From: an uncultured Gammaproteobacteria bacterium
Lineage (GTDB): Bacteria; Patescibacteriota; Microgenomatia; UBA8517
Assembly (NCBI GenBank): GCA_964357925.1
Contig: CAYHMW010000002.1
Location: 23,367-87,366 of the forward strand
Length of the DNA stretch: 64,000 bases
Direction of reading: 5' to 3'
The notes below the pieces were generated by a model that was not told the DNA's origin, searched no databases, and worked only from the letters and a program-made list of their open reading frames with translations. Below, piece after piece: positions 50,293-51,180 of the stretch; within the stretch, counting starts at the first letter, position 1; each line of letters begins with the position of its first letter. The translations under genes and the position numbers were made by a program.

Positions 50293-51180
50293 CTACAACT
50301 TTCTCCAATCTGGATTTTTTCTTGTTCTATTTATCTTAACTAATTTAGAATCTCTTACTTGTTGTTTTTGATAAAATCCTCTCAGAATCGACTTGCCGCC
50401 AGTGTTTGAGTACTTTAGAAAGTAATCAAACAACTCTATCCAATGTTTGTGTTCAAGATCGCTCGGCTTGGACCTTTTTGAAAAACCAATCTTATTTGAT
50501 AGCGAGACCATTTTATCTTTTCCAATCAAAACAGAAAGCCCATCTATCACATTTGGCTTAAATTGAGCAAAGGTAAACGCAACAAAATCATAATAAAGCT
50601 GTTTATCTTTTTGTTGAACCAATGGTTGTTTCCGCTGCTTAATGTTCAACAAAACAACCCTAAATCTTGGTGATGGAAAGAAATCTCTATTTTTGAAGTC
50701 ATGTGCAACTTTCACTTCAAACCATGGTGCCAACAAAGAAGAAAACAAACTATTTTTGTAGGTATAGGGCTTACCGATAAATTTCTTAGCAGCATCTTGT
50801 TGCACTATAAGATAAATATCGGAAGGAGGATACGCTGTCTGAGTTAATTTACGGACAATGTCTGAAGTTAGTGAAAATGGGATGTTTGAAAAAACCTTAT
50901 ATGGTTTATCAGGTAAATTTACATTTAAAACATCACCTAATCTTACCTCCAAACGACTATCGCCTTCGTATTTTCTTTGAAGTCTGCCACATAGTTCTTC
51001 ATCAATCTCATACGCAATCACTTTTTTGGCGTGTTTTATAAGTTCGTTAGTTATCGCACCACGCCCTGGTCCAATTTCGTAAACAACATCTTCCGCAGCT
51101 ATTGAAGCACCAGACACTAAATCAGCAATTACTCTGTGGTTGACCAAATAATTTTGTGAGTAAACAACACTTTTTCTCAT
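50293..51180 (-). CDS. rRNA adenine N6-methyltransferase of the Erm/KsgA family; sequence is Erm-like (23S rRNA A2058 dimethylase type)
   Basis: YSQNYLVNHRV, VYEIGPGRGAIT (SAM motif I), YKVFSNIPFSLTSDIVRKL, DIYLIVQQDAAKKF and QQKDKQLYYDFV. To my recollection these align block by block with ErmC (HSQNFITSK, IFEIGSGKGHFT, YKIFGNIPYNISTDIIRKI, EIYLIVEYGFAKRL, KDKQKYNYFV) better than with E. coli KsgA. Confidence 0.7.
   Translation of the reverse strand: MRKSVVYSQNYLVNHRVIADLVSGASIAAEDVVYEIGPGRGAITNELIKHAKKVIAYEIDEELCGRLQRKYEGDSRLEVRLGDVLNVNLPDKPYKVFSNIPFSLTSDIVRKLTQTAYPPSDIYLIVQQDAAKKFIGKPYTYKNSLFSSLLAPWFEVKVAHDFKNRDFFPSPRFRVVLLNIKQRKQPLVQQKDKQLYYDFVAFTFAQFKPNVIDGLSVLIGKDKMVSLSNKIGFSKRSKPSDLEHKHWIELFDYFLKYSNTGGKSILRGFYQKQQVRDSKLVKINRTRKNPDWRKL

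Follow-up and report, generated by a model that had tools for sequence, protein, structure and literature searches.

Between ftsZ and ileS, the DNA analysed here (64,000 nucleotides of contig CAYHMW010000002.1, hereafter the window) carries, on the opposite strand, a gene for a 295-aa protein. Our analysis supports its identification as an Erm-clade rRNA adenine N6-methyltransferase and not a housekeeping KsgA. An earlier, sequence-only reading of this DNA had already called the protein Erm-like rather than a typical KsgA, and this is borne out by the pattern of hidden Markov model (HMM) scores, by the Erm(42)/Erm(53)-type family and its C-terminal tail, by the tree and by the structure matches. 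It is likely that the protein is an S-adenosylmethionine (SAM)-dependent enzyme that methylates N6 of A2058, making the cell resistant to macrolide, lincosamide and streptogramin B antibiotics (MLSB), and that the gene is an acquired, accessory and constitutively expressed one.

The methyltransferase gene and its catalytic motifs

50293..51180, minus strand: methyltransferase coding sequence, ATG start, 295 aa, recognised as an open reading frame (ORF) and by Pfam RrnaAD, NCBIfam, profile, tree and AlphaFold2 model.
51049..51078, minus strand: motif I, the SAM-binding loop E35-IGPGRGAIT-44, with I36, G37, G39, G41 and T44 invariant in the 40-sequence family alignment.
50875..50886, minus strand: motif IV, N99-I-P-F102, the target-adenine pocket, with S98, N99, I100, P101 and F102 invariant in the same alignment.
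50296..50418, minus strand: C-terminal extension, residues 255–295, with the basic motif K282-INRTR-287 at 50320–50337, an Erm(42)/Erm(53)-type signature.

The 295-aa protein belongs to the Pfam family RrnaAD (152.7 bits over residues 6–254). All four peptide blocks that had been singled out in the initial inspection (YSQNYLVNHRV, YKVFSNIPFSLTSDIVRKL, DIYLIVQQDAAKKF and QQKDKQLYYDFV) are present in the translation of 50293–51180, and the ErmC and E. coli KsgA strings set beside them match real sequences, namely those of plasmid ErmC and of MG1655 KsgA. The ATG start at 51180 is supported by homologues of 295–300 aa, whose alignments begin at residue 1. An identical protein is encoded on three short, independently assembled contigs from Hainich groundwater (0.1-µm-filtered) and on a 91-kb NCBI contig. 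A tblastn search with the protein found no second RrnaAD gene in the 64-kb window.

By comparison with ErmC', the set of SAM-binding and adenine-pocket motifs is intact (EIGPGRG, E58, NIPF, FFPSP and AAKKF), and it is invariant or nearly so within the family. Besides the residues of motifs I and IV, the 40-sequence alignment shows invariance of the acidic E58 (within AYEID), downstream of motif I, and of F167 and P171 (in DFFPSPRF), which lie downstream of motif IV in the same adenine pocket. The FxPxP part of this pocket is formed by F167, P169 and P171; NIPF and FFPSP align with NIPY and FHPKP of ErmC', and the basic pair K132 and K133 (AAKKF) falls at the position of the ErmE R163/K164 ‘basic ridge’. 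Roles have been described for motif I, for E58 in SAM ribose binding, and for motif IV, the pocket and the basic ridge, and the pocket positions are nearly invariant among Erms (PMC8906542). Together, these motifs indicate an active adenine N6-methyltransferase, although on their own they do not specify its target. The adenine-pocket and basic-ridge residues, taken from the ErmE and ErmC mutagenesis papers, were also considered as discriminators between Erm and KsgA and were rejected, being too similar in KsgA.

Membership of the Erm clade

A search of a large protein collection returned about 100 homologues, 32–52% identical and mostly 273–300 aa long, for which the JGI product name, where given, is almost always 23S rRNA (adenine-N6)-dimethyltransferase. 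The family profile was built from 40 metagenomic homologues, excluding all named Erms. With this profile the Providencia plasmid Erm scores 317 bits, Erm(53) 313 and Erm(42) 286, within the range of the members themselves (262–444), whereas ErmF/C/A/B/X reach 136–163 and KsgAs 97–143 bits. The same relatives emerge from a tblastn search against 72,556 plasmids, in which the best match, with E 1e-48, is Erm(53), 34% identical across 97% of the length, followed by the Providencia Erm and Erm(42), also at full length; ErmA/B/C match the first 200 residues only (E 1e-17 to 1e-20).

The window protein and these three Erms also have in common a tail of about 40 residues that ends in K-[IV]-[HN]-R-[TN]-R; the window protein reads KINRTR, Erm(42) and Erm(53) both read KIHRNR, and the Providencia Erm reads KVHRSR. 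Written as K-x-[HN]-R-[TNS]-x, the motif occurs in all three of these Erms and in 54 of the 89 family sequences examined, and in none of eight classical Erms or 20 KsgAs. The alignment shows the tail as a derived character common to the window protein and Erm(42)/(53). AlphaFold2 models it as short helices, with a predicted local distance difference test (pLDDT) score of 58–88.

Phylogenetic placement, which had been put forward as a check, was obtained from a neighbour-joining (NJ) tree of 120 sequences, based on Kimura-corrected distances over 256 well-occupied columns with 300 bootstraps. The outgroup consisted of 20 KsgAs from Proteobacteria, Firmicutes, Mollicutes and one archaeon. The tree groups the window protein with Erm and apart from KsgA, and the split between KsgA and all Erm plus family sequences is recovered in 95% of bootstraps, in a sampling that left out eukaryotic Dim1 and KsgA of the candidate phyla radiation (CPR). 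Within the family, the window protein lies inside a CPR-dominated subclade, while Erm(42), Erm(53) and the Providencia Erm cluster with two Bacillota sequences (L046 and L077), one of them from Tissierella sp. P1. As a side observation, ErmX and the ErmE/ErmO-like proteins fall among the Chloroflexota members of the family and have a Thermomicrobiales sequence as their neighbour (tree entries L083, L040, ErmX, P0100 and P0101); the enclosing groups have at most 49% support, and long-branch attraction could be an alternative account of this actinobacterial placement.

The AlphaFold2 model of the window protein has a mean pLDDT of 90.9 and a predicted template modelling score (pTM) of 0.87. Its best structural match in the Protein Data Bank is ErmE (target template modelling score (TM) of 0.91, root-mean-square deviation of 2.3 Å), followed by ErmC' (0.88) and Erm38 (0.85), while KsgA and Dim1 chains mostly match with TM of 0.66–0.85 and deviations of 3–5 Å. 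These matches of a predicted model are consistent with an Erm, although alone they are not decisive.

Separation from KsgA

Against the NCBIfam model NF000499 (Erm23S_rRNA_broad, here Erm_broad) the protein scores 210.0 bits, 2 bits under the cut-off of 212. Against TIGR00755 (ksgA) it scores 155.1 bits, under the cut-off of 171, while the KsgAs tested score 222–299. Both models were calibrated with proteins of known type, with the following scores in bits:

ErmC: Erm_broad 284, ksgA 150.
Erm(42): Erm_broad 255, ksgA 129.
Erm(53): Erm_broad 234, ksgA 139.
ErmO-like: Erm_broad 260, ksgA 125.
E. coli KsgA: Erm_broad 136, ksgA 299.
Firmicute KsgA: Erm_broad 167, ksgA 262.
Mycoplasma-type KsgA: Erm_broad 172, ksgA 259.
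Archaeal KsgA fusion: Erm_broad 170, ksgA 238.
Window 295-aa protein: Erm_broad 210, ksgA 155.

The difference between the Erm and the ksgA score is +55 for the window protein, +89 to +134 for known Erms, +33 to +134 for Erms and family members taken together, and −68 to −163 for KsgAs. The Erm_broad cut-off runs through the family itself, being passed by P0007 (235.6), P0063 (241.9), P0079 (221.9) and P0069 (215.3) and failed by P0048 (191.1) and P0088 (205.8). The best specific Erm model is that of Erm(42) (NF000077, aligned to residues 7–289), and since the score of 145.7 bits is far under its cut-off of 600, the gene is not an erm(42) allele but a distant relative.

Sequence signatures separate the protein from KsgA in the same direction. 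The RRK motif in the C-terminal domain of KsgA, which reportedly plays a role in 30S binding, is present in 16 of the 20 KsgAs, whereas the window protein has FAQFKPN at the xQRRK site. It starts with a short, basic N-terminus in which residues 8–10 are SQN, as in ErmB/C, and SQNY (residues 8–11) replaces the GQNF of KsgA. It has neither the long N-terminal extension of KsgA nor the KsgA insertion ahead of motif IV.

The argument first offered for an Erm, that the protein lines up far better with ErmC than with E. coli KsgA, points in the right direction for a weak reason, because E. coli KsgA is merely a distant KsgA. This comparison is biased: E. coli KsgA gives 59 bits with the window protein in pairwise BLAST and ErmA/B/C give 92–98, but some low-GC KsgAs are as close (P0222 with 109, P0186 with 104 and P0199 with 100 bits). 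Sequence matches in the Protein Data Bank are similarly flat (ErmC' 88, ErmB 78, archaeal KsgA 76, ErmE 75 and B. subtilis KsgA 73 bits).

These figures bear on the possibility that the protein is a divergent KsgA/RsmA orthologue that dimethylates A1518/A1519 of 16S rRNA and looks Erm-like through CPR divergence and low GC. In keeping with such an orthologue, the low-GC KsgAs P0222 and P0186 match as well as ErmA/B/C, the ksgA model still gives 155 bits, the homologue P0007 passes both cut-offs (ksgA 176, Erm_broad 236), and the window holds no second RrnaAD gene. We nonetheless regard it as quite improbable: the ksgA score is under the cut-off, in a score pattern that is the reverse of every KsgA tested; the RRK motif, the insertion and the N-terminal extension are absent; and KsgA is split from the family in the tree, as described above. 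Moreover, all 80 relatives examined (see below) lack the gene at this position, it has no conserved synteny, and the family occurs in large-genome Chloroflexota and in Bacillota, where replacement of KsgA is unlikely. Genes annotated as KsgA in Patescibacteria have been reported near dnaA/rnpA/virB4 (PMC12102498), a neighbourhood unlike ftsZ–ileS.

Two proteins were considered as CPR KsgAs and rejected. P0103 is of Mycoplasma type, the search having given Mollicutes and Firmicutes only, and P0222, the KsgA most like the window protein, has multihaem cytochromes and an RND/OEP efflux system encoded around it and hence belongs to a Gram-negative. The context of P0104 is the rnmV-ksgA arrangement of Firmicutes.

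Neighbourhoods of the homologues

The genomic context of the homologues was scanned in one genome per GTDB species, giving 384 loci, of which the best 80 were examined. These 80 come from CPR, Chloroflexota (with genomes of 2–5 Mb), Bacillota (among them an isolate, Tissierella sp. P1), Atribacter and Armatimonadota, and the distribution of the family is patchy. The closest homologues are found in metagenome-assembled genomes (MAGs) of Shapirobacteria, Woesebacteria, Saccharibacteria and other Patescibacteria. Together with FtsZ relatives that stem from aquifers, this makes it likely that the window is of CPR/Patescibacteria origin. Synteny around the homologues is not conserved in the best 80 loci. 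An ileS gene occurs near homologues in L032, L068 and possibly two more loci; the arrangements differ, and this synteny was set aside as coincidence.

What recurs around the homologues are genes of mobility and resistance. A large serine recombinase adjoins the homologue in 19 of the 80 loci, directly downstream in about 13 of them and often with an overlap of a few bases; the loci with the recombinase directly downstream belong mostly to the window protein's own subclade. An Xis-like gene of the HTH_17 type (helix-turn-helix, HTH) stands immediately upstream in at least seven loci. In six loci titled Saccharibacteria or ‘uncultured’ (L045, L048, L049 (5890–6978), L053, L056 and L057), the erm-like gene shares 7–14 nt with an overlapping gene for an APH/Mph-like kinase; by analogy, an erm and kinase pair of this kind would be as in macrolide-resistance islands. 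P0007, a homologue of 295 aa that is 49% identical to the window protein, occurs as the same sequence in two NCBI assemblies and 31 index blocks. Its gene order is HTH_17, erm-like gene, serine recombinase, ABC-F-type ATPase and glyoxalase/Ble-type gene, in one assembly near a TrwB-like coupling protein. From its gene content, the P0007-type cassette looks like a mobile macrolide–lincosamide–streptogramin resistance element circulating in Patescibacteria. Given these recombinase, HTH_17, kinase and ABC-F neighbours, the homologues behave as a mobile resistance gene and not as a housekeeping rRNA modifier.

Compact cassettes of HTH_17, erm-like and large serine recombinase genes were noted in CPR at L005 (7801–10367), L006 (7801–10394) and L011 (6798–9364), and further ones at L010, L012–L015 and L037. 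The HTH gene upstream of erm(53) was considered as kin of the HTH_17 gene of the CPR cassettes and rejected as unrelated.

A further observation concerns the taxon labels. MAGs deposited as third-party annotation under the labels ‘uncultured Gammaproteobacteria’, ‘Pseudomonadales’ and ‘Candidatus Bathyarchaeia archaeon’ sit on contigs or chromosomes of 0.4–0.66 Mb (L013–L015, L019, L029, L035 and others). The erm-like genes from MAGs labelled in this way cluster with CPR, and the ‘Bathyarchaeia’ locus holds bacterial greA and obg. Many such MAGs are probably mislabelled CPR, and the taxon labels look unreliable.

A probably acquired gene in the ftsZ–ileS spacer

50080..50265, plus strand: hydrophobic small ORF of 61 aa with a GGAGGG Shine-Dalgarno sequence, in the same ftsZ–ileS spacer.

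The gene order in the window is mraY, ftsW, murG, ftsQ-like, ftsA, ftsZ, the 61-aa ORF, the methyltransferase gene on the opposite strand, ileS, rodA, L21, L27 and parB; a single tRNA-Val is the only tRNA gene in the window. The locus was compared with 80 metagenomic loci whose FtsZ is 71–81% identical to that of the window and which stem from aquifer metagenomes. An ileS gene lies downstream of ftsZ on the same strand in 57 of them, at a distance of 4 nt to about 4 kb, and an RrnaAD-family ORF occurs within 6 kb in none of the 80. Seven loci carry an IleS of the same type as the window (60–69% identity), and there the spacers of 109–1406 nt hold unrelated small ORFs and no methyltransferase. 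Since the adjacency of ftsZ and ileS is ancestral with a variable spacer, and the gene is absent in the relatives, the methyltransferase gene is a lineage-specific insertion.

The composition of the gene is atypical as well. Its GC content is 35.1% and its GC at third codon positions 29.4%, against means of 39.7% (s.d. 3.0) and 36.0% (s.d. 3.9) for the genes of the window, i.e., about 1.5–1.7 s.d. below them; the neighbouring ftsZ and ileS have 45.9% and 40.3% GC, and the codon usage is the eighth most atypical of 53. The statement in the sequence-only reading that the gene has the local GC content is therefore not upheld, with 35.1% against the gene mean of 39.7%. Of its description as a resident, constitutive gene, the second part fits the sequence, but residence does not agree with the absence from all 80 relatives, the lack of conserved synteny, the recombinase-linked homologues and the low GC. 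The gene looks acquired and accessory, not an ancestral resident.

The 61-aa ORF has no NCBIfam match and no homologue in the spacers of the 80 relatives; it may have arrived together with the methyltransferase gene. The spacer as a whole (window 50007–51220) appears as a variable hot spot, ranging in the relatives from 4 nt to more than 4 kb and holding different, unrelated small ORFs in each (L100, L102, L145, L155, L160, L161 and L170 are examples with small ORFs in the spacer).

A separate observation concerns the adjacent IleS (51221–54040), which is of type 2 and MupA/MupB-like, with 625 bits against the NCBIfam MupA model and 727 bits against the ileS model. Among the 80 relatives (L100–L179), the IleS encoded downstream of ftsZ is 60–69% identical to that of the window in seven and 29–40% identical in about 50. 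Two such distant IleS types in one syntenic slot suggest, from sequence comparison, displacement in place.

Expression signals

51181..51220, strand not applicable: divergent intergenic region of 40 nt shared with ileS, whose ATG is at 51221 on the plus strand.
50271..50296, strand not applicable: inverted repeat with perfect 9-bp arms, GTAGGCAGG-N8-CCTGCCTAC, where the 61-aa ORF and the methyltransferase gene converge.

The gap to the divergent ileS is exactly 40 nt, as had been stated. It contains TATAAT at 51193–51188 on the minus strand, 7 nt before the methyltransferase start (TATAAT-ACTAACT-ATG), and TAAAAT at 51207–51212 on the plus strand, 8 nt before the ileS ATG. No Shine-Dalgarno sequence is found at either start, while the strong GGAGGG is at the start of the 61-aa ORF (50070–50082), 1.1 kb away. 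This arrangement suggests leaderless mRNAs for both divergent genes. The 40-nt region holds no leader ORF, and the fold of the upstream RNA is not significant (z = −0.57); the proposed lack of a leader peptide or attenuator thus fits the sequence. Expression of the methyltransferase gene is probably constitutive and leaderless. A consensus promoter scan gave sites not above chance and a terminator scan called none; with the generic promoter scan no better than chance, the constitutive and leaderless mode is something we infer from the arrangement of the start region. The inverted repeat at 50271–50296 overlaps the stop codon of the methyltransferase gene, lacks a U tract and is not called by the terminator scan, and it may be a bidirectional transcript end.

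Alternatively, the window copy could be what is left of a mobile cassette, silent or in decay and devoid of present function. The recombinase and HTH partners of many homologues are indeed missing at the window locus and a Shine-Dalgarno sequence is not recognisable, yet the reading frame is full length and intact, all family-invariant catalytic residues are kept, the AlphaFold2 model is confident (pLDDT 90.9), a perfect TATAAT lies at leaderless distance from the ATG, and the same protein is found on three independently assembled contigs. We consider such a remnant extremely improbable.

A proposed function and its alternatives

We propose the following account of how the enzyme might act. 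The protein would be a SAM-dependent rRNA adenine N6-methyltransferase of the subgroup that includes Erm(42) and Erm(53), borne on plasmids and integrative and conjugative elements (ICEs), with an extra basic C-terminal tail. It is predicted to methylate N6 of A2058 in 23S rRNA during 50S assembly, and the methylated A2058 would block the binding of macrolides, lincosamides and streptogramin B, making the host, probably a groundwater member of the Patescibacteria/CPR, MLSB-resistant. In this model the accessory gene entered the variable ftsZ–ileS spacer, and with neither leader peptide nor attenuator, and probably a leaderless mRNA, it would be expressed constitutively. The predictions of A2058 methylation and MLSB resistance follow from the homology to Erm(42) and from the resistance-type neighbourhoods of the homologues; the A2058 target, the phenotype and the mode of expression are what we infer at this point, as would be any assignment of mono- versus dimethylation. 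The 23S rRNA region around A2058 gave no match across all 179 fetched loci.

Several points weigh against this account. No recombinase, kinase or ABC-F gene adjoins the window copy, and tblastn found no remnants of serine recombinase, ABC-F or APH genes in the 64-kb window. The curated NCBIfam Erm_broad cut-off is not reached, if only by 2 bits, and the protein shares only about 34% identity with any Erm characterised by experiment. The tree comes from a distance method and has few outgroups, none of them a KsgA or Dim1 of CPR or eukaryotes. Finally, in the work of Lund et al. (PMC8914350) seven of the selected new erm families made E. coli resistant, whereas at least two further families, UGF171 and UGF122, failed to do so.

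The low identity and these silent families would also suit an Erm-clade paralogue that acts on another adenine in 23S, 16S or other RNA and serves ribosome modification or self-protection in CPR and Chloroflexota, conferring no macrolide resistance; Erm(42)/(53) would then be derived members that gained or kept A2058 specificity. The position of the window protein in a CPR subclade apart from the cluster of Bacillota plus Erm(42) is in line with this, as is the conserved basic C-terminal tail, which could steer a different RNA contact. Nevertheless, the family's own profile places Erm(42), Erm(53) and the Providencia Erm inside its score range, the adenine-pocket and basic-ridge positions are kept, and the linkage of homologues to Mph-like kinases, an ABC-F-type ATPase and mobile cassettes is what antibiotic resistance would lead one to expect. 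We therefore judge such a paralogue unlikely, and an A2058-directed resistance enzyme remains our preferred explanation.

Should the enzyme be active, the genome of a groundwater member of the Patescibacteria would carry a constitutive MLSB determinant related to genes that are spreading in cattle and human pathogens. At 34% identity to the nearest named erm, the gene is too divergent for identity-based resistome tools, and it falls 2 bits under an AMRFinder-type HMM cut-off. It also provides a worked case of the separation of Erm and KsgA in deep-branching lineages, where family signatures, context and distribution decide and a comparison of ErmC with E. coli KsgA misleads. The practical consequence is modest, because similar predicted genes of candidate phyla have already been published, those from CPR purely as predictions. 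Predicted erm clades in ‘Candidatus phyla’ are already known, and the window gene is a divergent addition to them; the ftsZ–ileS insertion, the tail motif of the family and the CPR cassettes of HTH, erm and serine recombinase genes may be new but incremental details. A wider scenario, which we regard as doubtful, is that Erm(42)/Erm(53)-type cassettes (HTH, erm and serine recombinase, with or without an Mph-like kinase or ABC-F) circulate in CPR, Chloroflexota and Bacillota and form the reservoir of the veterinary and clinical gammaproteobacterial erm(42) and erm(53), with the window copy domesticated, constitutive and under real macrolide selection in groundwater consortia of CPR and their hosts.

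Comparison with known systems

The closest annotated counterparts are Erm(53) of the Psychrobacter plasmid pWB2 and the unnamed Erm of the Providencia plasmid pPROV279-1, which are 34% and 33% identical to the window protein over 97% of its length, tail included, and have the same short N-terminus and a SNIPF/ANIPF motif IV. Their genes lie in resistance regions flanked by the insertion sequences IS91/IS26 on plasmids of Gammaproteobacteria; the window gene, in contrast, lies on the chromosome and has no genes of mobile elements close by. Erm(42), found on ICEs of Pasteurellaceae and on enterobacterial plasmids, is 34% identical over window residues 8–288, and its tail reads KIHRNR against KINRTR; in the NJ tree it groups with the Bacillota sequences L046 and L077 and not with the CPR subclade of the window protein. 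It is referred to as an Erm monomethyltransferase in Pasteurellaceae (Desmolaize et al. 2011, as cited in PMC6028734).

The more familiar ErmC'/ErmB/ErmA and ErmE/Erm38 have the same fold (TM of 0.85–0.91 for ErmE, Erm38 and ErmC'), N-terminal layout, motifs I and IV and FxPxP pocket, with KR in ErmC where the window protein has the basic KK. However, these classical Erms are about 30% identical over the first 200 residues only and have no C-terminal tail. Plasmid copies of ErmB and ErmC carry annotated leader peptides and attenuators, while the window gene has none. KsgA/RsmA/Dim1 proteins are like the window protein in belonging to Pfam RrnaAD and in their overall fold, but they form a separate clade and differ in having RRK, GQN instead of SQN, an extended N-terminus and an insertion ahead of motif IV.

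Among genes known from metagenomic surveys, thousands of erm-like hits have been listed in CPR genomes by resistome studies (PMC8651080 and a 2026 preprint); these two surveys do not separate KsgA from Erm and include no macrolide-gene experiment, and the ftsZ–ileS locus is described neither in them nor by Lund et al. (2022, PMC8914350). The latter reported a clade made up of unknown, predicted erm genes of metagenomic and ‘Candidatus phyla’ origin, inside which lies a small cluster holding four known ones, and it is the description of this ‘Candidatus phyla’ clade that the window gene fits.

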